A DNA stretch of 11,080 nucleotides from a virus (Duplodnaviria; Heunggongvirae; Uroviricota; Caudoviricetes), in IMG/VR virus record IMGVR_UViG_2778261641_000016; one strand, written 5' to 3'. Shown here piece after piece: positions 1 to 11,080 of the stretch (positions are counted from its first letter, which is position 1; each line of letters begins with the position of its first letter). The notes beneath the pieces are model-generated. The model made no database searches, was not told the DNA's origin, and worked only from the letters and a program-made list of their open reading frames with translations. Position numbers and translations under genes: made by a program.

Positions 1-225
1 CAATATGGTGCCGCAGTAAAAGCGGCAGAAGCACAGCGACAGTCACTGATTGATACTGCAATGGCTTCCATTAGTCTGATTCAACTGAAATTACAGGCCG
101 GACGGGAGTTGACGCAGGCAGAAACAACCCGACTTAACGCTGTGCTGGATTACATTGACGCGGTGACGGCAACAGATACCAGCACCGCACCGGATGTCAT
201 CTGGCCTGAACTGCCGGAGGCGTAG
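1..225 (+). CDS. phage tail fiber assembly protein, C-terminal part (5' end outside window)
   Basis: Frame 1 is open from base 1 to TAG at 223-225. Translation ends ...TQAETTRLNAVLDYIDAVTATDTSTAPDVIWPELPEA*, which matches the conserved C-terminal tail of lambdoid/P2-type Tfa chaperones as I recall them. No start codon in the window. Confidence 0.75.
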   Translation, partial: QYGAAVKAAEAQRQSLIDTAMASISLIQLKLQAGRELTQAETTRLNAVLDYIDAVTATDTSTAPDVIWPELPEA

Positions 226-459
226 GCCATTCAATATCTGGCACACAGGACAAAACTGAGACACACAAGGCTTTGCACTGTATTGCAAGGCTTTGTTCTC
301 TCCTGTGGATGTGTGTCTACATATTTGAAGATTGTTGTGCCGTATTTGTGACATACGCATGACAACATCATGCATCAACTTTCTGTTTGTGCCATCAACT
401 ATAGCTTAGTGAATGCGGTTAATGCTTGCTAAAACAGATAGTTATGATTGGTGCTACAG

Positions 460-505
460 ATTCGTAATGCGAAGGTCGTAGGTTCGACTCCTATTATCGG
501 CACCA
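460..505 (+). pseudogene. 3' half of a tRNA-Thr gene (thrW-type, anticodon loop through CCA); attachment-site remnant
   Basis: ATTCGTAATGCGAAGGTCGTAGGTTCGACTCCTATTATCGGCACCA contains an anticodon loop TTCGTAA (CGT), T-arm GTAGG-TTCGACT-CCTAT, acceptor 3' strand TATCGGC, discriminator A and CCA. The matching 5' acceptor strand GCCGATA is absent upstream, so this is a fragment and not a functional tRNA. Identity to E. coli thrW is from memory. Confidence 0.65.
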
Positions 506-1085
506 TCAACAGAAAATCCCGTAAAAACAGCATTCTTTAGCATGTTTATCTAACGGTTTGTAACTTCTGTTCTAACGTCTGTTAGCACTGGTAAACGCCT
601 TTGCGTTGTATCGGCTCAAGTATTGTACAACGTACTGGCGGGTAGTTACCAGGCTCAAGCCCGAACAGCATTAGAAATTATGCCATCCCTTGAAGCTAAA
701 AGAGTTGCCGGACTCTCTAAACACATCACTTGAACCCTTAGCGATACGTTCCGCGCTTCGTGCGGCGCTCAATGATGCTACACGTCGAGATGACGTTGCA
801 GAAAATAAACAGGCGTAATGTTGGGAAGACTAACCGGATCGGGAAAGAATCCGGCTCTGCCACGGTTTCGATCACCGGAGTATAACGATCACCTGATAAG
901 AGAACGTGCTAAGGCTTTATCCTCCCTGCGAAGGGATTACACCCTGCGGAAGCGCTACGCGCCGCCTTTTCTTATGTGCCCAACACGGCACGTAATGGTC
1001 ATCCATTATCTGCACCATTGTAACTTTCGTTGTACTGCCTCTCTGATGTACGTTGAGCGCTGGCAGATTCAGCGGAGGGGATATC

Positions 1086-1244
1086 ATGTCAAAAGCTAAC
1101 CAAAAAGCAGCCACGAAGCGCAACAACCGTAAGATTCACGCCCGTAAATTCCTGGCAACACCAGAGGGGAAAGCCTGGCTTGCTAAGAAGCAGGAAGAGC
1201 GAGAGGAAATCAAGTTGGCGCGAGCTGCAAACTTGATGTTTTGA
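1086..1244 (+). CDS. small, strongly basic hypothetical protein (52 aa)
   Basis: ATG at 1086 lies 6 nt after SD GGAGGG (1074-1079), in frame with track ORF 1053..1244. Product MSKANQKAATKRNNRKIHARKF... is Lys/Arg-rich. Stop TGA 1242-1244. Confidence 0.45.
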   Translation: MSKANQKAATKRNNRKIHARKFLATPEGKAWLAKKQEEREEIKLARAANLMF

Positions 1245-1247
1245 GAT

Positions 1248-1263
1248 GGGGCTAATCAGCCCC
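1248..1263. terminator. GC hairpin between convergent genes (possible terminator)
   Basis: GGGGCT-AATC-AGCCCC perfect 6-bp stem immediately after the stop of the 1086..1244 gene. It overlaps the stop codon of the convergent minus-strand gene and has no adjacent U-tract, so function is uncertain. Confidence 0.3.
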
Positions 1264-2029
1264 TATTGCCCCTATGCTTTTTTTCGAATCTTGTCACAAC
1301 TCTATCCAACCATTTGGGTTCTTCTCTAAGATCTGAGTAGTAACAATTTTCTGGAACCGCGTTCCAGAAAGCAGTTATTGCGTTAGCAAAATCTACAAAT
1401 TGATCTTCTGAGACATGTAAATCGTCATGGTTAGGGACAATCTGCGTGCCTCTAACATCGGTGGGGTTTGGGTAATACTCAGGATGATCAACTGATAGTG
1501 TTTGATGTGCAGGGCCGTCTCCATGCTTGTATACGTTTACCACCAAGTTACAGGCTTTTATCCTTTCTCCGTATTCGGTTCCATTGATTGTGAGGCCAAT
1601 CCATTCGAGCAAATCAATTAGCTGATGGAAAGTTAAATTCCAGATCATGGGGGTAATCAATTCTCTTTCACACCAATTACTTAGCTCTTTGATAGTATGT
1701 TCTCTTAGTTTTTTATCAAACTGATGATACATACCTGCTGTCAACGCCAACAATACGGTATTTTGCATCTCCAGAAGCGACCGTACATAATAAATTCCCT
1801 CATGATAGGCTTGCTCGTAGGCCGCCATTGGGTCATCGTTATCTTGATCAAAATACTCAGCAGTAGTCTCCAAAAACTGTTGTTCTCTCTTCTCTGCTTC
1901 TTGTTCTAAATCACCAAACTGAGAGAGAAGCCGCCGCCTTGCCTCAGAAACGTAAAATTCATGGGGTTCAAGAAAGTATGGAAGATCGGCTCTGGCTAAC
2001 CAGAAGGTGACAAAATTTTCAGTAGACAT
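1256..2029 (-). CDS. hypothetical protein (257 aa), function unknown
   Basis: Long minus-strand ORF. Preferred start is the ATG at 2029 (MSTENFVTFW...), preceded by SD GAGGAA with 4-6 nt spacing; the track start at 2056 has no SD. No motif I can assign. Confidence 0.6.
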   Translation of the reverse strand: MSTENFVTFWLARADLPYFLEPHEFYVSEARRRLLSQFGDLEQEAEKREQQFLETTAEYFDQDNDDPMAAYEQAYHEGIYYVRSLLEMQNTVLLALTAGMYHQFDKKLREHTIKELSNWCERELITPMIWNLTFHQLIDLLEWIGLTINGTEYGERIKACNLVVNVYKHGDGPAHQTLSVDHPEYYPNPTDVRGTQIVPNHDDLHVSEDQFVDFANAITAFWNAVPENCYYSDLREEPKWLDRVVTRFEKKHRGNRG

Positions 2030-2192
2030 ACATTTCCTCAATGAAGCGATAGACATTTTGAGGTTATGTTATCTTCGGTGAGGGTTAAAATCCTCAACTG
2101 ATTCAATGGAATTGTCATTTGGTTTGAAATGCGGTAAAAGAATAAAATTCGTAATGTACGCTTTGCAGAAACAATCTGAAAATGAGGTGGTT

Positions 2193-2420
2193 ATGAGTGA
2201 ACGTTACGAATTTTTACCCAATTGCTTCCTGAAAGTCTCTATCTCATCGGGTTACTTTACTGCCATCCTTGATGGTTCGCTTCCTCCTGATACCCCTGGT
2301 TCTGTTCATGCTGATAATGCCACGCAAGTCATAATCGTACTCGATTCCTACTTCCAATTGACTGACTTACAGCATCAAGGAATTGCTAATTATCTTTGCT
2401 CTCAAGGGATGGAACTTTGA
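2193..2420 (+). CDS. hypothetical protein (75 aa)
   Basis: ATG at 2193 preceded by SD GAGGTGG (2184-2190), in frame with track ORF 2106..2420. Divergent from the 257-aa gene. Confidence 0.4.
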   Translation: MSERYEFLPNCFLKVSISSGYFTAILDGSLPPDTPGSVHADNATQVIIVLDSYFQLTDLQHQGIANYLCSQGMEL

Positions 2421-2875
2421 TAGATTGGTTGCTTAATGTTGATAATCTGACCATGCTTGCCGCATGGGCTGGGTTTGCACTATCCATTTTCCAGCTATTA
2501 AAATCCAGAACAGATCTACGCCTTTTCTTAGGTTGCGATCAGTATGAAGACAGAATTTATGTTTCCAACAAAAGCGCCCATGATGTGACGATAAGTTCGG
2601 CGGGCATAGTAACCGCCAGCGGACGCCTTAGCGATTGTTCTAACGAACATTGTGATGAATACATGATCAGCCCCATGTTGCCACGCCGATTAAAAGCCCG
2701 TGATGAAATGATCTTAGAAGTACCATTCATCAATAAGGCTCACCATAATAAGGTGCATCATCGCGGAGGGGTGTATGTTACTACATCTGATGGGAAGCTG
2801 TTCAGTGATGTTAGTTGGCTGCGTCGTCGCTGGTGGTGGATATTGTCTCTGATCCTACGTGATTCCAAGCAGTGA
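2417..2875 (+). CDS. hypothetical protein with N-terminal hydrophobic (probable transmembrane) segment
   Basis: ORF in track (2396..2875) overlaps the stop of the upstream gene. Possible starts are TTG 2417 (after AGGGA at 2405-2409) or ATG 2453; the start is uncertain. Segment LAAWAGFALSIFQLL is hydrophobic. Confidence 0.4.
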   Translation: MIDWLLNVDNLTMLAAWAGFALSIFQLLKSRTDLRLFLGCDQYEDRIYVSNKSAHDVTISSAGIVTASGRLSDCSNEHCDEYMISPMLPRRLKARDEMILEVPFINKAHHNKVHHRGGVYVTTSDGKLFSDVSWLRRRWWWILSLILRDSKQ

Positions 2876-2933
2876 TTACTTATACACCGCACCAGACCAC
2901 GCTGGTTATCTGCTTGTCTTCCTTCTTCAATTG

Positions 2934-3131
2934 TTACTCCTCTTCAAAGGTCATTGTGTAGCGGCATTGCTGCGACGGCCTGAGCGTCACTGTCTCCGTA
3001 AAGTTGGCGTTGGAATAAACGCAAATCTTCGCGTTGTCTGTCTCCTGTTCGTCACTGAGAATCAGGGTTATCTGTCCGGCATTCGCCAGGACTGGCATTA
3101 CTGTCAGCGTCAGCACAAGCAAGCGTTTCAT
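2934..3131 (-). CDS. small secreted protein with Sec-type signal peptide (65 aa)
   Basis: ATG at 3131 preceded by perfect SD AAGGAG with 6-nt spacing. N-terminus MKRLLVLTLTVMPVLANA has an n-h-c signal-peptide layout. The SD overlaps the stop of the upstream recombinase gene, suggesting co-transcription. Confidence 0.55.
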   Translation of the reverse strand: MKRLLVLTLTVMPVLANAGQITLILSDEQETDNAKICVYSNANFTETVTLRPSQQCRYTMTFEEE

Positions 3132-3141
3132 GCGTATCTCC

Positions 3142-3702
3142 TTATAAGTCCATCTCATTGATCACACGGCTAACGGCTTGCTTGTCTAAATCCAGATAGC
3201 GCCTGGTGTCAGTGATGTTGCTGTGATTAAGCACGGTCATAGCTAAAGCGATGTTGTTTGCTGAACGCTTGTAGATGGCATTCCCGCCAGCTTTGCGGAA
3301 GCTGTGAGCTGATACAGTGCCATGAATACCGATAGCTTTAGCGGCCTCTGCGATCTGCTTGCTCACTTCTTCGCGTCGTACAGGCGCTTGCTTGTTCATT
3401 GATCGGTTACGCTGGCTTCTGAACACATGCACATCATGCGGATACTCAGCACGGCGACGAGCAATCATCTGCACCACTGGAGCAGGGAGAGTGAGGGCTT
3501 TACGCTTCCCTGTCTTCTGTTCTTCTATGTCAATCTCACCGTTGATCACTTCGTCGAAGCGTAACGCTACGGCATCCCCCACACGCAGTACAGCGGCTTG
3601 CATCATTAACGTAACGTCAGCTATCAGGCTCTTGTTATGAGCGTTTAGCCACTCCCTGATCGCTTTGGCTTGCTGTTCGTCTAACACTACTGCTCTGTTC
3701 AA
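3142..3702 (-). CDS. small tyrosine recombinase (catalytic domain only; FimB/FimE-size integrase/invertase, or truncated integrase)
   Basis: Product carries the catalytic signature in order: Arg in VLRVGDAVALRFDEV, HxxR in HSFRK, and HSNITDTRRY near the C-terminus. Probable start TTG at 3702 after SD GGGAGGG; the track start at 3774 is also TTG but has no SD. There is no N-terminal arm/core-binding domain. Confidence 0.65.
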   Translation of the reverse strand: MNRAVVLDEQQAKAIREWLNAHNKSLIADVTLMMQAAVLRVGDAVALRFDEVINGEIDIEEQKTGKRKALTLPAPVVQMIARRRAEYPHDVHVFRSQRNRSMNKQAPVRREEVSKQIAEAAKAIGIHGTVSAHSFRKAGGNAIYKRSANNIALAMTVLNHSNITDTRRYLDLDKQAVSRVINEMDL

Positions 3703-3799
3703 TTTACCCTCCCATAAAGACACACATCTAAACTCAACGAAACAAACAATATGATCAATTTCAGTAAGTTGCAATATAAATGATCAAAAATCGAACTGT

Positions 3800-4009
3800 C
3801 TTGTGTGTGGTAAATGGCGCGATTGCGTCCAGTGCTTAACGACCTCCAGGGCCGCCTCCAGATCGAAAATTTCTTCTCCTCTAAATATCTTGAACAAAAT
3901 CATGATGTTGGCATTTATAAACATGTGTTTGAACATTGCCAAATCCTCAACTCTGCACGAAGAACAGCGGCAACAGCGGAACATCACACTACCAATGCTT
4001 GTGTGTGGT
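3800..4009. repeat. pair of 12-bp direct repeats CTTGTGTGTGGT (3800-3811 and 3998-4009)
   Basis: Exact 12-mer present twice, 198 bp apart, directly upstream of the recombinase gene. Confidence 0.4.
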
Positions 4010-4080
4010 TATTGTCTATCTCATTGATTTAAATCTGATAAATGTAAGGTTGTTAGGCGAGGGCGGGGCTAACCTGCCTG

Positions 4081-4109
4081 TATGCACAAATTATGCGGAG
4101 TTTATGCAC
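4081..4109 (+). repeat. three TATGC(A/G) direct repeats phased at 11 bp (iteron-like)
   Basis: TATGCAC at 4081, TATGCGG at 4092, TATGCAC at 4103, with exact helical-turn spacing, directly after a GC box GGCGAGGGCGGGG (4056-4068). Confidence 0.4.
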
Positions 4110-4460
4110 TTGAAACTGAGTGTGTAATGAAATGATTAGAATGCTAATCAATTGGTGGATTTTGGCATGAAAAAGAAACATCGTTTCATTTTAGAAAACT
4201 CGTTCAGCACATTGCACCTGTCATGAAACTCCTCATTGTGGACAATGATCGCTGTGAGCCGCATGGCGCAAGGCTTTACGCAAAGTGAGTGATGGTTACT
4301 ATCTTGCTGACTATGGCAACTTTACCCATGTAACAACGGCAATCTTTACCTGTCATTTAAGATAGGCTTAGCTATGATTATCGTGTTGTTTTGATAGGAA
4401 TAACCTCTCGTTACTCTTAGTGTTGTTGCATGGATGAATCAGAGTTAGTTGGGGGCGTTA

Positions 4461-4541
4461 TACATCAAAATGATGTATAGATGCATGGGATACGCATCAA
4501 ATTGATGTATGGATCGGCAAACTACACATCAAATTGATGTT
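4461..4541. promoter_or_regulatory. array of three inverted-repeat sites CATCA-N3-TGATG phased at 32 bp (operator-like)
   Basis: tACATCAAAATGATGTa (centre 4469), cGCATCAAATTGATGTa (centre 4501), cACATCAAATTGATGTt (centre 4533). Half-site copies recur at the downstream promoters. Confidence 0.5.
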
Positions 4542-5091
4542 CTATACAAAGAGATTCTAAAAGCGATCTCTAAAAGAGAGCTTTTAGAAGATCTTGTTAA
4601 AGATTCGCTTTGCTGGCGCGTATCGCCTGGCAAGTGACCTGATTCGCCTTTGGGGGCTACTCGGTCAGCCGCTCACGACGCAGCGTAGCGCATCTGTCTG
4701 TGATTGTGCCAGGGCTTCGCCCTCGTGAAACGAGGCACAGAAGCTATGCGCCGTGTGCGCAATGTCTTTCAGCATAACTTCTGCCTGTCTTCCATGCTCC
4801 GCATTCATCCATGCAAAGTTAGCCCACGGCTAAGGATTCACTGGTCGCTGATGGCTCCAGTTCATCCAGCCTCAATCCAATACCATCACCTACTATCCTG
4901 ATAACTAACGTTATCCCTCAGTAGTTGTGCTATTGGTTTCGGGAGTAAGTGCCAGAGGGCGGCGGTAACGCAAACGGAACGCCCCAGACGCGCTGAGAGC
5001 GAATTTGAGAGGATAGGGAGGGGATTGCAACTCTCAGGCTTTCAAACCTGTTAGAAAGCGATAGACCGCGTTTTATGATGACATGAATGAA

Positions 5092-5120
5092 TTGATCACA
5101 ACGTGGAAATGCGCTATAAT
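5092..5120 (+). promoter_or_regulatory. sigma70-like promoter (TTGATC - 17 bp - TATAAT)
   Basis: -35 TTGATC at 5092-5097, 17-nt spacer, perfect -10 TATAAT at 5115-5120; points into the downstream operon. Confidence 0.5.
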
Positions 5121-5142
5121 TTGAAAGGGATTTAAATAAGTG

Positions 5143-5171
5143 TTGACATTTAAATCATTTCATGTTAAAGT
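5143..5171 (+). promoter_or_regulatory. second tandem sigma70-like promoter (TTGACA - 17 bp - TAAAGT with TG extension)
   Basis: Perfect -35 TTGACA at 5143-5148, 17-nt spacer, -10 TAAAGT at 5166-5171 preceded by TGt. The half-site AAATGATGTA (5172-5181) sits at the predicted transcription start. Confidence 0.45.
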
Positions 5172-5266
5172 AAATGATGTAGGGTAATGAAAGCATTCAT
5201 CCCGTCCTCATCTCAGGCATCCAGCCTAACGCAAACAATCCAACTTACACCGCACTATCAGGCAAC

Positions 5267-5515
5267 GTGATTAACGTTCTCCCTGGATGGTGTTTCTGTG
5301 TTTCTAACGCAAGGAGAACCAAAATTAAGTATTTTAATCCAGAACTTGTCTTCGAGGCTTTAAAGGCCGGAAGCCAGACGCGAAATGCAATAAACAGCCA
5401 GCGAGCAGCCGCACAACGGCAAGGATATTTCGAACACGCTGAAAGATTGCGTAAAGGAATCGAACTTTACGATCAATGGAAAGCTGAACAGGCTGAAACC
5501 ACCACCAACGAATAA
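5267..5515 (+). CDS. hypothetical protein; start codon uncertain
   Basis: Open frame in track from GTG 5267 to TAA 5513-5515. A strong SD AAGGAGAA (5311-5318) lies inside it but no in-frame ATG/GTG/TTG follows within 15 nt; only ATT at 5325. Confidence 0.35.
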   Translation: MINVLPGWCFCVSNARRTKIKYFNPELVFEALKAGSQTRNAINSQRAAAQRQGYFEHAERLRKGIELYDQWKAEQAETTTNE

Positions 5516-5533
5516 ACCAGAAGGAGAAACCAA

Positions 5534-5710
5534 ATGAGCGAAATCCAGAAGAAGAAACCAGCCGGAACATTCGTAAAACTGCCGGATGAAGTGTTTAGTA
5601 CTTTGTTCAAAGAGGCGCGAGCGAGAGGCGTAACAGTGCAGGAGATGTTAATTGACGCTGCAACCACACTTTCCACATCAATTAAGAACGGAGAACGTTC
5701 TACCAAATAA
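5534..5710 (+). CDS. small DNA-binding protein, ribbon-helix-helix-like (58 aa)
   Basis: ATG 5534 is 7 nt after perfect SD AAGGAG (5521-5526). Product MSEIQKKKPAGTFVKLPDEVFSTLFKEARARGVTVQEMLIDAA... has the beta-strand/helix/helix pattern of Arc/CopG-type proteins. Not in the ORF track because it is under 60 aa. Confidence 0.55.
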   Translation: MSEIQKKKPAGTFVKLPDEVFSTLFKEARARGVTVQEMLIDAATTLSTSIKNGERSTK

Positions 5711-5724
5711 GGATACACCCTAAC

Positions 5725-6465
5725 ATGACTGACATTATAAACAGTAAGGCTTTTAGTTTCACCAACACCGAAGACGCATTTAACGAATGCACCAGGATCA
5801 CCAATCTTAAAACAGGCGTAACAGAGTCCCTGTCTCCTGCTGATAAGCAGTTTTACGTCAGAATGCGCCATCGTTATTATCGCTTTGCGATAGAGTTGGG
5901 CGGTACTTATTACGATGACATTGATCAACTTGGTGCAAGTATTGGTGTCAGCTCGGCTACGGCAACACGTATTGTTGCAAAGTTGAAGAAAATCGGACTG
6001 ATCGCCAGTAATAAGCCAAAGCGCTCTAACCAATGGACTATAACGCCACTCACGCCGCAAAACTTCACCTTTGAACGTGATCGTAATGCGATGGAACGTG
6101 ATTCCGCGCCGGAATGGGTAGATTGTCTGAAACATCCCGTGTTTGGCAAAGCTAAAGAAGACGTAGCGCCAGAGGAAGAAAAACAGCAGTCAGTGCCAGA
6201 AGAGGCCAAAGCAGATCCGAAGCCGGAGAAGCCAAAGAAAATGCCTACGAAGAAACCCGCCTCCATTCCAGCTAAAGATATTAAGATAGAGCCAGTTAAT
6301 TTAAACTTTCTTGAGGGTTATCGGGATGAATGGGAGAATCCTGAAAAGAATCTACCAGTTTCACAACATCCGAAAATCAGATGGCTACTTATTAACGGAT
6401 ACCTGGACACAGAGAAGAATCCAAAACTTAAACCAATCTACGAGGAAATAGAACATTTATGCTGA
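5725..6465 (+). CDS. winged-helix DNA-binding protein with long Pro/Lys/Glu-rich linker (possible phage O-type replication initiator or regulator)
   Basis: 246-aa ORF. The N-terminal part has an HTH-like segment (DIDQLGASIGVSSATATRIVAKLKKIGLIAS), followed by a low-complexity linker (EEEKQQSVPEEAKADPKPEKPKKMPTKKPASIP). The domain layout resembles replisome-organiser proteins; assignment is from pattern only. Confidence 0.6.
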   Translation: MTDIINSKAFSFTNTEDAFNECTRITNLKTGVTESLSPADKQFYVRMRHRYYRFAIELGGTYYDDIDQLGASIGVSSATATRIVAKLKKIGLIASNKPKRSNQWTITPLTPQNFTFERDRNAMERDSAPEWVDCLKHPVFGKAKEDVAPEEEKQQSVPEEAKADPKPEKPKKMPTKKPASIPAKDIKIEPVNLNFLEGYRDEWENPEKNLPVSQHPKIRWLLINGYLDTEKNPKLKPIYEEIEHLC

Positions 6466-6920
6466 AAACGGTTATACCCAAACAATACAACGAACGTGAT
6501 CTTAACATCATCCATCTTGCCAGTTTATTAAATCCAGAAGTTGAAAGAGGTGTTGCATTCGAACAAGCGCAAGAACTTGTAGATGTTTACGCTGAGCGAG
6601 GTGAATCAAGTTACGCTAATGCTCTTGTTACGCTATTCAATGCAGCGATGAAGCCACCGAAAGAGATAGAATGTAAAATGACATCCCCACATCTTCACGA
6701 TAAGAATCTGTCTCCTTCGGAACGTCTGGTATTAATGCACCTCGAATCACTGCCATCATTAACAAATGTGAAACAGGAGTCAATAGCGATAGTGTTGGGG
6801 ATAAGTGTGGCAACTGTATCCAGTGCGATTCGCAAGCTTCGCCGCAATGATTATCTAACTACTACGTTAATCAAACCTGGTCGCGGTAAAGGATGCGACA
6901 TTACACTTACGACTAAATAA
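6459..6920 (+). CDS. hypothetical protein with C-terminal winged-helix DNA-binding motif (153 aa)
   Basis: Start overlaps the upstream stop (ATGCTGA), implying translational coupling. C-terminal region SPSERLVLMHLESL...ESIAIVLGISVATVSSAIRKLRRNDYL is HTH-like. Confidence 0.55.
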   Translation: MLKTVIPKQYNERDLNIIHLASLLNPEVERGVAFEQAQELVDVYAERGESSYANALVTLFNAAMKPPKEIECKMTSPHLHDKNLSPSERLVLMHLESLPSLTNVKQESIAIVLGISVATVSSAIRKLRRNDYLTTTLIKPGRGKGCDITLTTK

Positions 6921-7024
6921 CAACAATCGGGAAACTTTTATGATTACTGCTTTATGGTGGTTCACCATATTCTATGGCGTTTACGTTATAACCAGACAAG
7001 GAGTTTCCCCTCTACGAGGAATGA

Positions 7025-7408
7025 ATGGGACGAAAAGAACGAAGTAACCTTGTTAGAATCGAAAAAGCCACACGCATCAGCAAACGTAAATACACCTCTT
7101 CTCTACAAGACCTCGCACGAGAGTCTATTCCTGGTGAGATGGTGACAACTATTAAAGAATATCCCGCAGTAGTACCAAATGGATTAGAGTTTGAACTATT
7201 GCAGGATGTTCTATCGTCAACGGATAACGTTTATTACAAACCACGACGCAGACGCGAATATATTATAGATAGTAGCCATCTCAAGAAATGGCAAATAGCA
7301 GGATTTGAACATTACGCCGATTATATTGGGTATTGTCAAACCTGGGGGCTATCCCAGCACACACAAGAGTTTGATATTCTCTTTGACGACAAGGAAAACA
7401 ATGAATAA
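7025..7408 (+). CDS. hypothetical protein (127 aa), basic N-terminus
   Basis: ATG 7025 is 5 nt after GAGG (7016-7019). Its stop overlaps the next start (ATGAATAA). Confidence 0.5.
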   Translation: MGRKERSNLVRIEKATRISKRKYTSSLQDLARESIPGEMVTTIKEYPAVVPNGLEFELLQDVLSSTDNVYYKPRRRREYIIDSSHLKKWQIAGFEHYADYIGYCQTWGLSQHTQEFDILFDDKENNE

Positions 7409-7739
7409 TAAAACTATGGACACAGTGAACACCCTAATTAACTCTTTCCACGACAACTGGCATTTACCAACCTTACAGCTTGTTAATGCAGCGTGGCGTG
7501 AGAGAACGCCCTCCGCGCTTCTGGAAGCGGTGCAATACACTGAACAGGCAATCACTGCCCTTGAACATCTGCAAACGTCTGTAGCTCGTTTGGTGCAGCG
7601 TGACGGCAGTTCGATCACACCAGAAGAAGCGTGGCGTGTAGCTAATGACCTTGAGGAGCTTGCTTGCTCTCTGCAATACATCACCGTTGAACTCGGAGAG
7701 CTTTCCATCCAGATCGCGGAAGAATGCGCCATAACATAA
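7401..7739 (+). CDS. hypothetical protein (112 aa)
   Basis: ATG 7401 is 5 nt after AAGGA (7391-7395), in frame with track ORF 7305..7739. The longer track start has no SD. Stop TAA 7737-7739. Confidence 0.55.
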   Translation: MNNKTMDTVNTLINSFHDNWHLPTLQLVNAAWRERTPSALLEAVQYTEQAITALEHLQTSVARLVQRDGSSITPEEAWRVANDLEELACSLQYITVELGELSIQIAEECAIT

Positions 7740-7754
7740 AAGTTACTAAATGTC

Positions 7755-7783
7755 TTGACATTATGTGCTATATGTGTCATAAT
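7755..7783 (+). promoter_or_regulatory. near-consensus sigma70 promoter (TTGACA - 17 bp - TGtCATAAT)
   Basis: Perfect -35 TTGACA at 7755-7760, 17-nt spacer, extended -10 TGtCATAAT (7775-7783). It starts 16 bp after the stop of the upstream operon. Confidence 0.6.
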
Positions 7784-7789
7784 GAGTTA

Positions 7790-8334
7790 TAGGGTAAGTA
7801 TTCGAATCACTTCACCCTCGTATGTCAATACGCACTCCTTGAGAATGCCGTTCCCATAGCGGCATTCTCTCCCTCTGAATGCTATTTCTGAAAGTGTTGG
7901 TTCTTTGTCTTGTTTGTTCCGAAGGAATGCGCGGGATGTAATATCTCGTTGTGTTGGTATTGCATCGCAATCACCGCGCATCTCCGACTTTTTCAGAAAG
8001 GGCATTCGCTCTTTGCTCATTCATTCCGTTAGGATGAATGTAGTCAGACTGAATAAACGCCGTCAGCGGTAGTTACGTTCAGGCTGGCAATCTCTTATTA
8101 CTATTCCAGTGGTGATATTGAGATTCCATTCCCACTTCTCGCCATGACAGAAGGGCTTCTGTTTTGAAGTGGGAGCAATGACGGGCGATCCTACTTCTGT
8201 TATTCGTAACAGTTGCGCCCTTCATTTTTTCAAGAAGCCATTCTTTAACATCATAATCCTCCGAAACGAAAATGATTTTAACAGAATGCTTTCTAACAAG
8301 GGCATATTCTCCAGGGGCTTAATCGCCCCTTTTT
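7790..8334 (+). ncRNA. candidate ~545-nt non-coding leader transcript (promoter to intrinsic terminator); speculative
   Basis: No plus-strand ORF of 60 aa or more between the promoter and the terminator. Contains a perfect 10-bp stem hairpin (7841-7850 / 7860-7869). Only short ORFs without credible SD. Confidence 0.3.
8313..8334 (+). terminator. rho-independent terminator
   Basis: GGGGC-TTAATC-GCCCC stem-loop (8314-8329) followed directly by TTTTT (8330-8334). Confidence 0.6.
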
Positions 8335-8405
8335 AACAATCTGCATGTAACACTTCCGTTATCAATGGAAGGATAAACGCAGTTATAACGCGAAGGAACA
8401 ACACA

Positions 8406-8621
8406 ATGTTCTTAATAAACAATCGCGACCGAATCCTAAAATACAAATCCGAAGTGATTCAAGTTAATCCTGAGTTAATAGCTAAAGTGGCTGAAATGGC
8501 AGGATGTACCGTTGAAGAAATAGAAAAAGCTGTAGACCAGTATTTCCCTTCTGAGGACACACCTCAACTTAGTATGCAGGAACGGATCGCAATCAAATCC
8601 AAGGAAATCAAACAACAATGA
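8406..8621 (+). CDS. small hypothetical protein (71 aa), first gene of the head operon
   Basis: ATG 8406 is 7 nt after SD GAAGGAA. Its stop overlaps the start of the next gene (ATGA), implying translational coupling. Confidence 0.55.
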   Translation: MFLINNRDRILKYKSEVIQVNPELIAKVAEMAGCTVEEIEKAVDQYFPSEDTPQLSMQERIAIKSKEIKQQ

Positions 8622-8977
8622 TTGTAGACCTAACCGAACTTTTCCCAATTCGTAAGAGTTTCACTGACGTATTGAGCTACGCCACTGATTCTTTTGCAGT
8701 CGTAGAAGGCCGTGTTTTCGACCTGCCAGCAGATATTGAATGCGGCGATGTTATCGGCGCTGATGGCGCTCTATACACCTCCGGCGATGATGCCTTTGTG
8801 GTGGTAAGTGATTTCGTGAGTGCTGGCGACGGTAAAACCGTGAATGTCCTACGTGCGCCTAATGTTGGTAGCTTCGTAGCACTGAAAGCCGACAACCTGC
8901 ACGCAGCTAATCACGCCGCAGCTATCACCACGCTCGAATCCAAAGGGTTCGTATGCCGTCCATTCTTCACCTCTTAA
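8618..8977 (+). CDS. probable phage head decoration protein (119 aa)
   Basis: Gly/Ala/Asp/Val-rich small protein encoded immediately upstream of the major capsid gene, the same position as gpD before gpE in lambda-like heads. Assignment rests on position and composition, not on recognised sequence identity. Confidence 0.5.
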   Translation: MIVDLTELFPIRKSFTDVLSYATDSFAVVEGRVFDLPADIECGDVIGADGALYTSGDDAFVVVSDFVSAGDGKTVNVLRAPNVGSFVALKADNLHAANHAAAITTLESKGFVCRPFFTS

Positions 8978-8993
8978 TCAAGGAAGATAAATA

Positions 8994-10025
8994 ATGAGTA
9001 AAATCGCAATTGGGCGTGAGATGGTCGATTTAGCGCCAATCTTCCAGGCTCTGCCGGAACGTAACTATCTTATGAATGCCCTCGACCTATTCGACGGGGT
9101 AGGTGTTCAGAATCCGAAAGTGGTGGTGACACAGCTTCTGGATGATAACTACAGCCTGTTTAACACCCCGCAGAGCCGTTATTCATCAAACCACGACACT
9201 ACCGCGCGTCAGAATGGCAAAGAATACCTTATCGAGATTCCTTGGTTTGCAAGGGAAGATGAGTTTAAACCTGTAGACGTACAAGGCCGCAGAGTGCAGG
9301 GAACGGACTACGAGCAAACCGTTACCGACCTGTACACCGAATACACTGGCAAACATAAGATTGCTTATCTGCGTACCCGTGAGTCTTACCTGGCCCGTGC
9401 TCTGTTCAAAGGTGAAGTTTATACGCCTGCAACTGATGACCTACTGATCTCTTATGCTGAACTGTTCGGTGTGGTGCCAATGACAGCCAGCGTGAGCACA
9501 GCGACAGCGGCACAGGATTTTGATGCGATCTTAGACAAAGTTCAGGCTGCCGCAGGTGGATTGGCTGGACAGATTGAACGAGTGATCGTATTCGCTAAAC
9601 CTGCTGCATTTAGCCAGATTCGCTTCTCTGACAGTATGTCTAAGGCGTTCCAGTATGTAGCGCCATATGACGACCGTAACCTATTCTACCAGCGTCACGA
9701 GCTTCTCCCTGGTGTTAGTACGTTTAGCCTACCTGGTGCGCCTATCGACATTGTTAAAGTGACAGATCCGCTGATCCTTGCACAGATGCCAGATGATGCT
9801 GACATGGTGGCGGTTCCGGTGTTCAGTAAAGGCACAAATGCTTATCAGAACATCTACGGCGCTGCCTCTGGTAACTTTGCGCTGATCGATGCTGCACCTG
9901 CTGAATACTACTCTTGGGGCTACCTGAGCGAGCGCGGCGATGCTTACCACGTTATGCACGAAAACAGCGCATTACCAGTGAACCATGCGTTAGGTATGCA
10001 GGTGAAGATCACCATCACTGCTTAA
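8994..10025 (+). CDS. phage major capsid protein, lambda gpE-like (343 aa)
   Basis: ATG 8994 after AAGGAAG. Length matches the 341-aa lambda E protein, and local blocks (ALFKGEVY, VIVFAKP...F) resemble E-family blocks as I recall them. It follows the decoration-like gene. Confidence 0.75.
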   Translation: MSKIAIGREMVDLAPIFQALPERNYLMNALDLFDGVGVQNPKVVVTQLLDDNYSLFNTPQSRYSSNHDTTARQNGKEYLIEIPWFAREDEFKPVDVQGRRVQGTDYEQTVTDLYTEYTGKHKIAYLRTRESYLARALFKGEVYTPATDDLLISYAELFGVVPMTASVSTATAAQDFDAILDKVQAAAGGLAGQIERVIVFAKPAAFSQIRFSDSMSKAFQYVAPYDDRNLFYQRHELLPGVSTFSLPGAPIDIVKVTDPLILAQMPDDADMVAVPVFSKGTNAYQNIYGAASGNFALIDAAPAEYYSWGYLSERGDAYHVMHENSALPVNHALGMQVKITITA

Positions 10026-10088
10026 TGAGCAAGCGGGAGCCTGACCCGCTGGAAATAATCAGGCTATTGAATAGGGCGTGTGAACGTT

Positions 10089-10121
10089 GGGAACATCTCC
10101 CCAGTGTTCCCGCCCTTTTTT
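10089..10121 (+). terminator. probable intrinsic terminator after the capsid gene
   Basis: GGGAACA-(9 nt loop)-TGTTCCC stem (10089-10111), then GCCC and TTTTTT (10116-10121). Confidence 0.45.
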
Positions 10122-10144
10122 ATTTCCAGAATGAGGAAAGATAA

Positions 10145-10342
10145 ATGCAAGTGATTGTAAAAAGCGCGGGGCTTCACCTCGCCGTAAATGCTGAAACAGC
10201 AGAAGAGTTATTAAATCTGGCGGGAGTGTGTCGTGTGCTTGAAATAGATCACGGTCATCTACGTCAGTTATTACATCGTGGGCGTAGTGTATCAGATGCA
10301 CTTAATTATCTGGTGAGTAAAAAAGGCGGTGGCGATGCTTGA
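10145..10342 (+). CDS. hypothetical protein (65 aa)
   Basis: ATG 10145 after strong SD GAGGAAAG. Its stop overlaps the start region of the next ORF. Confidence 0.5.
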   Translation: MQVIVKSAGLHLAVNAETAEELLNLAGVCRVLEIDHGHLRQLLHRGRSVSDALNYLVSKKGGGDA

Positions 10343-10799
10343 GATTAATACAAGTAAGATCGTCAACACCGTAACTTTCACCGTTGACAAAGGGAGTATT
10401 GCAGAGGCTAAGGCCGCAGCGGATAACCTTCAAAAGCACTTCCAGAAAATAGCCGATCCCAAGATTCGCTTCCAGGATCTGAAGCAGCGCAGACAGAAAG
10501 CCCGTCAACAAGCCGATGATGCACGTTTTAATGATAAGCCTCGTGATACGAAGGAAATGAAAGCCCAACGTGCGGCGGAGAAGCAGAAAGCCAGGGATGA
10601 AAAGGCCAATCTGAAAGCGAAGCAGCAGCTACAGAAGCGCCAAGAGACAGCCGAGCTTAAACTTCGCCATGCAGGGCTACAAGTGTCAGGAATTAAAGGT
10701 AAATACGGGCTTGATCCTAAATCTCAGTATGAAGCGTTACGTTATATTCATCAGCAAAGCGAAGAGTTTGCGAAAAGGGTATTAACTTTCGCAGCCTGA
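10329..10799 (+). CDS. hypothetical protein, highly charged Lys/Arg/Glu/Gln-rich central region (156 aa)
   Basis: Track ORF overlapping the upstream stop (start ATG 10329 or 10335). Its last ~8 codons are read out of frame from invertase-homologous DNA. Confidence 0.5.
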   Translation: MAMLEINTSKIVNTVTFTVDKGSIAEAKAAADNLQKHFQKIADPKIRFQDLKQRRQKARQQADDARFNDKPRDTKEMKAQRAAEKQKARDEKANLKAKQQLQKRQETAELKLRHAGLQVSGIKGKYGLDPKSQYEALRYIHQQSEEFAKRVLTFAA

Positions 10800-11080
10800 C
10801 CGACAGCATAGATACGTCTTCACCAATGGGACGCTTTTTCTTCCATGTCATGGGCGCACTTGCAGAAATGGAAAGGGAGCTGATAGTCGAACGTACCAGG
10901 GCGGGATTGGCTGCGGCTCGTGAAGAAGGGCGAATAGGTGGGCGTCGATCAAAGCTAACTGATGAACAGTGGGCGCAGGCAGGCAGGTTGATTGCAGCAG
11001 GTGAATCACGACAGCGTGTGGCATTAATTTACGATGTTGGGATATCGACGCTATATAAAAAATTTCCGGCAACCAGGTAA
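10772..11080 (+). pseudogene. serine DNA invertase (Pin/Gin/Hin family) C-terminal fragment, lacking the catalytic N-terminus; runs off the window end
   Basis: Translation EKGINFRSLTDSIDTSSPMGRFFFHVMGALAEMERELIVERTRAGLAAAREEGRIGGRRSKLTDEQWAQAGRLIAAGESRQRVALIYDVGISTLYKKFPATR closely matches the C-terminal half of e14 Pin as I remember it. The frame is closed by TGA at 10730-10732 and no serine-nucleophile N-terminal domain exists in any frame upstream. Confidence 0.65.

Follow-up and report, generated by a model that had tools for sequence, protein, structure and literature searches.

Seven E. coli chromosomes carry, adjacent to the tRNA-Thr gene thrW, an island that is 100% identical to positions 460-10774 of the window, by which the whole stretch of 11,080 nucleotides analysed here is meant; in two more chromosomes the identity is 99.7%. 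Full-length copies of the island measure approximately 13.7 kb. The island is organised as a few cargo genes, a minus-strand gene for a short tyrosine recombinase (3142-3702, 186 amino acids), a non-coding region of 1.5 kb and a plus-strand operon, which codes for small proteins, a DUF6945 protein of 246 amino acids, an HTH_36 protein of 153 amino acids, several unknown proteins and then a major capsid protein of the lambda E type (8994-10025). At its far end, the island has an integrase gene on the minus strand. A gene for a 119-amino-acid protein is found just upstream of the capsid gene (window 8618-10025 for the pair), and beyond it the operon encodes a protein of about 615-625 amino acids, named TolA in RefSeq and weakly tape-measure-like at its N-terminus, and a Dit-like protein (L001 12876-14720; L016 7193-7861). 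Genes for a portal, a protease or a terminase were not found in the island.

The only part of the region matched by phage genomes is the att-like segment 236-506, which shows 93-96% identity to the attP/thrW region of lambdoid phages. The ends of the window (1-459 and 10775-11080) differ from the E. coli thrW island, and the island's long gene breaks off at 10774, with a fragment of a DNA invertase (10826-11080) after it; this points to a rearranged or tandem arrangement. Two Logan contigs of 13,685 and 13,698 bp equal the whole island and were considered as circular episomes, but one of them simply ends in a tRNA-derived direct repeat of 17 nt, which does not prove a circle. No description of the island family or of DUF6945 was found in the published literature searched, nor a described satellite family that it matches, and the family appears undescribed there.

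The features of the non-coding region and of the operon that are relevant to the present analysis are as follows.

4462-4476, no strand: iteron 1, ACATCAAAATGATGT, centre 4469, within the first 32-nt unit (4446-4477)
4494-4508, no strand: iteron 2, GCATCAAATTGATGT, centre 4501, 32 bp from iteron 1
4526-4540, no strand: iteron 3, ACATCAAATTGATGT, centre 4533, 32 bp from iteron 2 and bordering the AT-rich element
4541-4603, no strand: AT-rich element, proposed unwinding region, about 70% A+T, with GATC at 4565 and 4590
4555-4589, no strand: inverted repeat TTCTAAAAGC (4555-4564) / GCTTTTAGAA (4580-4589) with a 15-nt spacer, overlapping a palindrome at 4565-4593
4606-4958, no strand: non-coding element rich in G+C, lying after the AT-rich element and ahead of the promoters, conserved across genera
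5092-5120, plus strand: promoter-like site P1 ahead of the operon, sigma-70-like match, TTGATC-17-TATAAT
5143-5171, plus strand: promoter-like site P2 ahead of the operon, sigma-70-like match, TTGACA-17-TAAAGT
5172-5181, plus strand: single iteron half-site, AAATGATGTA, just past P2
5725-6465, plus strand: proposed initiator, 246 amino acids, Pfam DUF6945, with an N-terminal winged helix, a disordered linker and an exchangeable C-terminal domain
6459-6920, plus strand: HTH_36 protein, 153 amino acids, co-occurring with type 1 of the initiator C-terminal domain and a possible partner of it

The sequence ACATCAAAWTGATGT occurs three times at 4462-4540 in exact 32-bp phase, and the array adjoins the AT-rich, GATC-bearing element. 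An earlier note had described three inverted repeats centred at 4469, 4501 and 4533 in an ORF-free stretch. The repeats are borne out by the window sequence and by a repeat finder, which returned three 32-nt direct-repeat units (4446-4541, spacings 32 and 32); the arms of iteron 1 can be extended to TATACATCA/TGATGTATA (4459-4479), and another GATC lies within the array at 4512. The interval 3775-5266 is without a convincing gene and the sole reading frame that overlaps the array is a mechanical one of 42 codons, so that the stretch is essentially free of ORFs, as described. In a motif scan, CATCANNNTGATG was confined to the array: all three exact matches in the 11-kb window fall within it, as compared with 0.47 matches expected when one mismatch is allowed, and 43 of the 46 exact matches in all the 30 loci retrieved lie inside equivalent arrays. 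These match statistics, together with the conservation across genera described below, exclude a chance cluster. The array is a real functional element.

The AT-rich element lies about 2 SD above the window mean in ΔG, that is, it is less stable, yet it is not the least stable stretch. Its core (4548-4594) carries 0-1 mismatches in most of the related islands, including those of other genera, and the dyad element reads ...CTATACAAAGAGATTCTAAAAGCGATCTCTAAAAGAGAGCTTTTAGAAGATCT in most loci (0-1 mismatches); a variant form is present in the loci L003 and L015 and a more diverged one in L010, from Kluyvera. A scan of viral contigs with the pattern AAAGATCT gave no match because this departs from the pattern of the element, GAAGATCT. 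The near-perfect palindrome reported earlier at 4565-4593 does exist, as a 12-nt arm, AGAG and a 13-nt arm with one extra base, but comparison favours the register 4555-4564/4580-4589 instead: the pairing of TTCTAAAAGC with GCTTTTAGAA is kept through paired changes in L003/L015 (TTTTCAAAGC/GCTTTGAAAA) and in L010 (TTTTAGAAATC/GATTTCTAAAA), and the 4565-4593 palindrome is destroyed in L003/L015. Since no island protein that covaries with the variant element of L003/L015 was found among the neighbours, a hairpin or cruciform function for the dyad is as likely as a protein-binding site. A search of Rfam over the palindrome returned only a meaningless miRNA match (24 bits against a threshold of 90 bits). 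In Klebsiella-type islands, a gene for a Dam-family methyltransferase is located between the short recombinase gene and the proposed origin (L012 4826-5494; L029 2928-3614), which, with the conserved GATC in the AT-rich element, hints at methylation-dependent control of the origin.

A perfect 14-bp inverted repeat, TTGCATGGATGAAT (4426-4439) / ATTCATCCATGCAA (4803-4816), brackets the iterons and the AT-rich element. An invertible switch, with this repeat beside a gene for a FimB-sized recombinase, was considered and dropped because the repeat is without a counterpart in all ten of the other related loci checked; the repeat is thus probably not part of a conserved invertible switch. Downstream of the AT-rich element, RNAalifold predicts 80 pairs in the conserved element 4606-4958, 24 of which are kept through changes on both sides; one such stem reads GTGCC-AGGGC-TTC-GCCCT-CGT-GAAA-ACG-AGGCAC in the window and GTGCAA-TGGC-TTT-GCCA-CCGT-GAAA-ACGG-TTGCAC in L004. 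The minus strand folds better than the plus strand (alifold -51 against -42 kcal/mol; z -3.3 against -1.2), and Rfam contains no match to the element. Going by these folding predictions, a structured RNA is one possibility for the element, and a signal in single-stranded DNA by the origin is another.

To examine the conservation of the array, equivalent loci were compared from E. coli (L002-L005), from Phytobacter, Buttiauxella, Scandinavium and Kluyvera (L006-L008 and L010), from Klebsiella (L012-L014), from Logan assemblies of sequencing runs (L015, L029, L030) and from IMG/VR viral contigs (L020, L025). Three to six semi-palindromic repeats, mostly phased at 32 bp, are present at the same place in islands of seven enterobacterial genera. 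Thirteen loci beyond the window possess an equivalent array, and every one of these arrays adjoins the AT-rich dyad element; outside Kluyvera, this element hardly varies. The repeats lie about 1.1-1.25 kb upstream of the DUF6945 gene in every locus that has the gene and enough upstream sequence, and where the copies can be resolved the first interval is 42-44 and the later ones are 32-33. All share one design, that of short inverted arms flanking an A-tract, and they fall into the following types.

Type A, ACATCA-AAW-TGATGT: the window, L002, L006, L012, L025, L029 and L030
Type A', a one-base asymmetric variant, CCATCAAATTGAGG: L015
Type B, GGTGTC-AAAA-TGGCACC: L003, L005, L007 and L008
Type C, ACGGG-AAAAA-CCCGT: L004 and L020, and L010 with other flanks

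Nearly all relatives of the window possess four or more iterons, as against three in the window itself. E. coli MS6192/MS6193 carries four (L002 2580-2693) by virtue of an exactly duplicated 32-bp unit, the remaining island being 99.7% identical. Vestigial type-B repeats (GGTGTCAAAATGGCAC) are present directly upstream of a complete type-A array in L012 of Klebsiella (5549-5610) and in L025 (about 3235-3255), and look like the scar of a replicon-module replacement. The extra unit of MS6192 and the vestigial repeats both point to unit duplication and module replacement. In two islands with a 98-99% identical capsid gene (L018 and L022), the DUF6945 gene, the iterons and the AT-rich element are absent together. 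Their position is occupied by a gene for a 494-amino-acid DEAD/ResIII helicase-like protein (L018 5839-7323; L022 6137-7621) and by different repeats, two copies of GGTTATTTAGAAT at a distance of 44 bp; on its left side the exchange is bounded near window 4280. This joint replacement indicates that initiator, iterons and AT-rich element behave as an exchangeable replication module. L018 retains, at 5262-5300, the sequence ACATCAAAATTATGT, one mismatch away from a type-A iteron.

Two candidate binders of the repeats had been named previously, a ribbon-helix-helix (RHH) protein (5534-5710) and a winged-helix (wHTH) protein (5725-6465), and the comparison favours the latter. In an identity matrix of 14 loci, the iteron type partitions exactly with the cluster to which the N-terminal domain of the DUF6945 protein belongs: identities of this domain are 66-100% within type A including A', 71-99% within type B and 85% within type C, and 40-61% between types. 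The identity of the C-terminal domain is decoupled from the iteron type, this domain being shuffled independently. The window and L003, with different iterons, share 43% identity in the N-terminal and 83% in the C-terminal domain; the window and L006, with the same iterons, share 98% and 37%, and L003 and L005, also with the same iterons, 99% and 39%. Within the winged helix, the recognition helix and the wing show the largest differences. None of the other neighbouring proteins follows the iteron type. The RHH-like protein of 58 amino acids is not the binder, since it hardly differs between islands that have three different types of repeat. It is nearly invariant in most islands, with a diverged version in L006, L010 and the Klebsiella islands, and covariation with the iterons or the AT-rich element was not seen. 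An 82-amino-acid ORF and the short recombinase were likewise rejected as binders, being the same in the window and L004 despite different iteron types, as was the HTH_36 protein, nearly identical in the window and L003, which differ in iteron type. The gene that follows the DUF6945 gene goes with the C-terminal domain: type 1 of this domain is accompanied by the 153-amino-acid HTH_36 protein (the window, L003, L016 and L030) and other types by a protein of about 94 amino acids (L004, L013/L014, L015 and L029, the four loci in which the next gene was identified). This pattern suggests that the C-terminal domain and the product of the next gene may interact as partners.

Database labels of the 5725-6465 protein include ArsR/MarR family, wHTH, DUF6945 and even transposase, and never replication protein. 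Pfam searches gave DUF6945 at 27.9 bits, against a cut-off of 28 bits, and generic wHTH families. Among the PHROGs, it matches a 'replication initiation protein' family (E = 5e-10) and, weakly, PHROG 391, 'replication initiation O-like' (E = 4e-5). A profile of the N-terminal family matches PDB 4RO3, the N-terminal domain of RepA of the Vibrio cholerae phage satellite PLE (PMC7145576), with E = 3.2e-5 when built from 4 sequences and 3.8e-6 when built from 55; the homology to PLE RepA is based on this one solved structure and on the sub-threshold DUF6945 score. Most of residues 20-130 are modelled with confidence by AlphaFold, and in a fold comparison the PLE RepA N-terminal domain matched far better than all else and no terminase was matched; the N-terminal domain has the RepA_N/DnaD-NTD winged-helix fold. 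Pfam RepA_N (PF06970) gave no match at E <= 0.01. Homology to lambda O was not detected (hhalign probability 0.2%; no match to Pfam Phage_rep_O). As tblastn searches with the initiator found nothing similar in 72,556 plasmids or in 50,697 phage genomes, its initiator function lacks the backing of an autonomous replicon. By profile and by fold, the protein is a homologue of a replication initiator, through the PLE RepA N-terminal domain, and it has little of a classical repressor; the databases, which label it a transcription regulator, mis-annotate it.

Taken with the permanent fusion of the array to the AT-rich element, which is the anatomy of an origin, these results make it highly probable that the array supplies the iterons of a RepA_N/PLE-type replication origin with an adjacent unwinding element, an origin function that we infer. 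The array most likely belongs to a tRNA-integrated mobile island of about 13.7 kb with phage-like genes and is recognised by the island's own initiator. An AT-rich element, the expected neighbour of the iterons in an iteron-type theta origin, abuts the last iteron in every locus examined. In the proposed mechanism, the RepA_N-like winged-helix domain of the 5725-6465 protein would bind each semi-palindromic iteron as a dimer; the phasing of 32 bp, about three helical turns, would place the dimers on one face of the DNA, and the central A-tracts would add bends in phase. The resulting nucleoprotein complex would strain the adjoining AT-rich element (4541-4603) and lead to its opening, and the exchangeable C-terminal domain would recruit the helicase or replisome of the host or of a helper phage, possibly via the downstream partner protein. 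The unwinding and recruitment steps of this scheme are, like the origin function, proposals. The single dimeric protein with cooperative binding that the earlier note envisaged is retained here: the repeats look like sites for such a protein, lie on the same face and are probably bound cooperatively, and the protein is encoded in the downstream operon; its role in controlling that operon is a separate matter, considered below.

Since the island has no recognisable helicase or primase gene, its replication would need host or helper functions. The DnaA box TTWTNCACA has no match in the window, and the IHF consensus WATCAANNNNTTR has a single, distant one (7364-7376). Such sites are not obligatory for helper-dependent replicons, and their absence near the array fits an origin dependent on a helper or on the host replisome, such as that of PLE. 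The array region found no match among the 72,556 plasmids, and the oriT or oriV of a known plasmid is therefore rejected. A phage origin was rejected likewise, as neither the array region nor the initiator has a match in the 50,697 phage genomes.

The earlier proposal that the array controls the operon from a distance ranks first among the alternatives. In the form considered here, the wHTH or another protein would bind the palindromes cooperatively and loop to the half-site at P2, about 640 bp away. The half-site copy at 5172-5181 is indeed exact (AAATGATGTA) and directly follows P2, and plasmid iteron initiators commonly autoregulate. L006, which has the same initiator wHTH, possesses the half-site although its P1 region has diverged, and islands of types B and C with a conserved P2 backbone differ at exactly the half-site bases. 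The half-sites of the window and L006 are, however, not independent, their P2 regions being nearly identical, and the site is restricted to the window lineage and L006, being absent from L025 and L012 of the same iteron type; islands of type B or C have no half-site of their own type at P2. Of the weaker copy reported at 5090-5099, the sequence is there (AATTGATCAC, 7 of 10 positions), but it coincides with the P1 -35 box TTGATC, which is conserved whatever the iteron type, as is TAAATCATTT at 5151-5160. Iteron-like promoter sites that covary with the iteron type, as expected of an autoregulatory operator, were thus not found. Moreover, the binder is homologous to a replication initiator, and the constant partner of the array is the AT-rich element and no promoter. 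Given this initiator homology, the constant AT-rich fusion, the non-conserved half-site and the iteron-independent -35 box, remote control of the operon is not the best reading of the array and is considered improbable. The half-site at 5172-5181 may serve autoregulation in this lineage only or may have arisen by chance, and a secondary autoregulation of the operon is possible in the window lineage and unsupported as a feature of the family.

The architecture could also be read as a packaging site like lambda cosB, in which the repeats bind a small-terminase-like wHTH protein, the dyad is the cut site and the C-terminal domain matches the terminases of helpers. This is very unlikely, as the fold of the binder is nearest to that of the PLE RepA N-terminal domain and matches no terminase, and its PHROG matches are replication initiators. 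In L018/L022, the module is exchanged for a helicase-like gene and the capsid gene stays constant. Such a site would account for variable repeats beside an invariant dyad, for a binder whose DNA-binding N-terminus varies and whose C-terminus can be swapped, and for a lambda-E-type capsid gene in an island without a recognisable terminase; neither the region nor the protein, however, resembles anything in the 50,697 phage genomes, which argues against mimicry of a helper cos. A partition centromere, another architectural site or a chance cluster of palindromes is the least credible reading, as the phased repeats bound by small dimeric proteins that plasmid centromeres can also carry are here accompanied by no ParA- or ParM-type ATPase gene seen in the island, and chance is ruled out by the statistics and the cross-genus conservation given above.

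The origin reading is strengthened by comparison with known systems, of which PLE is the nearest. PLE RepA binds to the iterons of PLE, and PLE needs both of them in order to replicate (Barth et al., PMC7145576); RepA was placed in the RepA_N family by structure and not by sequence, and by that account no initiator of the RepA_N type had been characterised in a Gram-negative before it, such initiators being a rarity there (PMC7145576). In PLE1, an extensive non-coding region contains three iterons of about 30 bp, about 1 kb upstream of the repA operon (PMC7145576). The proposed origin of the islands is placed alike: it too sits in extensive non-coding DNA, about 1 kb ahead of the rep operon, PLE being an integrated, helper-dependent island. 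In both systems the repeats are semi-palindromic and converge on an A-tract, with three 32-bp units in the window; by the definition of semi-palindromic A-tract iterons used for PLE (PMC7145576), ACATCA-AAA/AAT-TGATGT occurs three times in the window. The RepA_N domain and the origin of PLE covary as a module and the C-terminal part recombines independently (PMC8263062), which is what the 14 loci show for the N-terminal domain with its iterons and the shuffled C-terminal domain. As in PLE, the copy number and spacing of the iterons vary by duplication. The differences are that N-terminal identity to PLE RepA does not exceed about 20% and the two C-terminal domains have no relationship; that the islands reside in Enterobacteriaceae and use a tyrosine recombinase at a tRNA gene in place of the large serine recombinase of PLE; that the island, known here from sequence alone, carries lambda-E-type capsid and tail-like genes; and that a nearly invariant AT-rich dyad element, as observed on the island side, abuts the iterons.

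The lambda origin has four dyad iterons around an A-tract (TCCCTCAAAACGAGGGA), followed by an AT-rich region and a palindrome. In lambda O, the N-terminal domain sets the iteron specificity and the C-terminal domain contacts the helicase loader P. The iterons of lambda are, in contrast, 20-24 bp apart and inside the O gene, and the initiator has no detectable homology to O; the resemblance is one of design only and not of family. In the RepA_N plasmids of Firmicutes, iterons usually lie within the rep coding sequence, whereas here they are non-coding and 1.1 kb upstream, and the Pfam model of that family fails to match. Semi-palindromic A-tract iterons, bound by a dimer in those plasmids, and a C-terminal domain that is host-specific there are the points of likeness (pSK41, pTZ2162; PDB 4PTA, 5KBJ). 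Iteron-type origins as such are already known, and what is new here is a probable enterobacterial example in an apparently undescribed island family.

More tentatively, and less likely than not, the islands could constitute an undescribed and widespread satellite-like family of Enterobacteriaceae of about 13.7 kb, coding for a capsid protein, tail-like proteins, an integrase of the tyrosine type and an initiator like PLE RepA. Replicon specificity (N-terminal domain and iterons) would then be shuffled separately from partner specificity (C-terminal domain and downstream gene). The driver might be helper phages with a weapon against origins, such as the Odn of ICP1 that acts on PLE, and the structured element of about 350 nt might act in priming or control. 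If so, RepA_N-like replicons, reported as rare in Gram-negatives, would be common in Enterobacteriaceae.

The origin reading would give a function to a protein family annotated as ArsR/MarR, DUF6945 or transposase and would explain the conserved non-coding region of 1.5 kb. The picture of their rarity in Gram-negatives would be altered by a clade of PLE-RepA-like replicons to be found in E. coli, Klebsiella, Enterobacter and Citrobacter as well as in further genera. The three or four natural iteron specificities on exchangeable domains offer a system for studying how the DNA specificity of an initiator changes, and knowledge of the origin is a first step to testing the replication of the island on induction and to identifying its helper phage.
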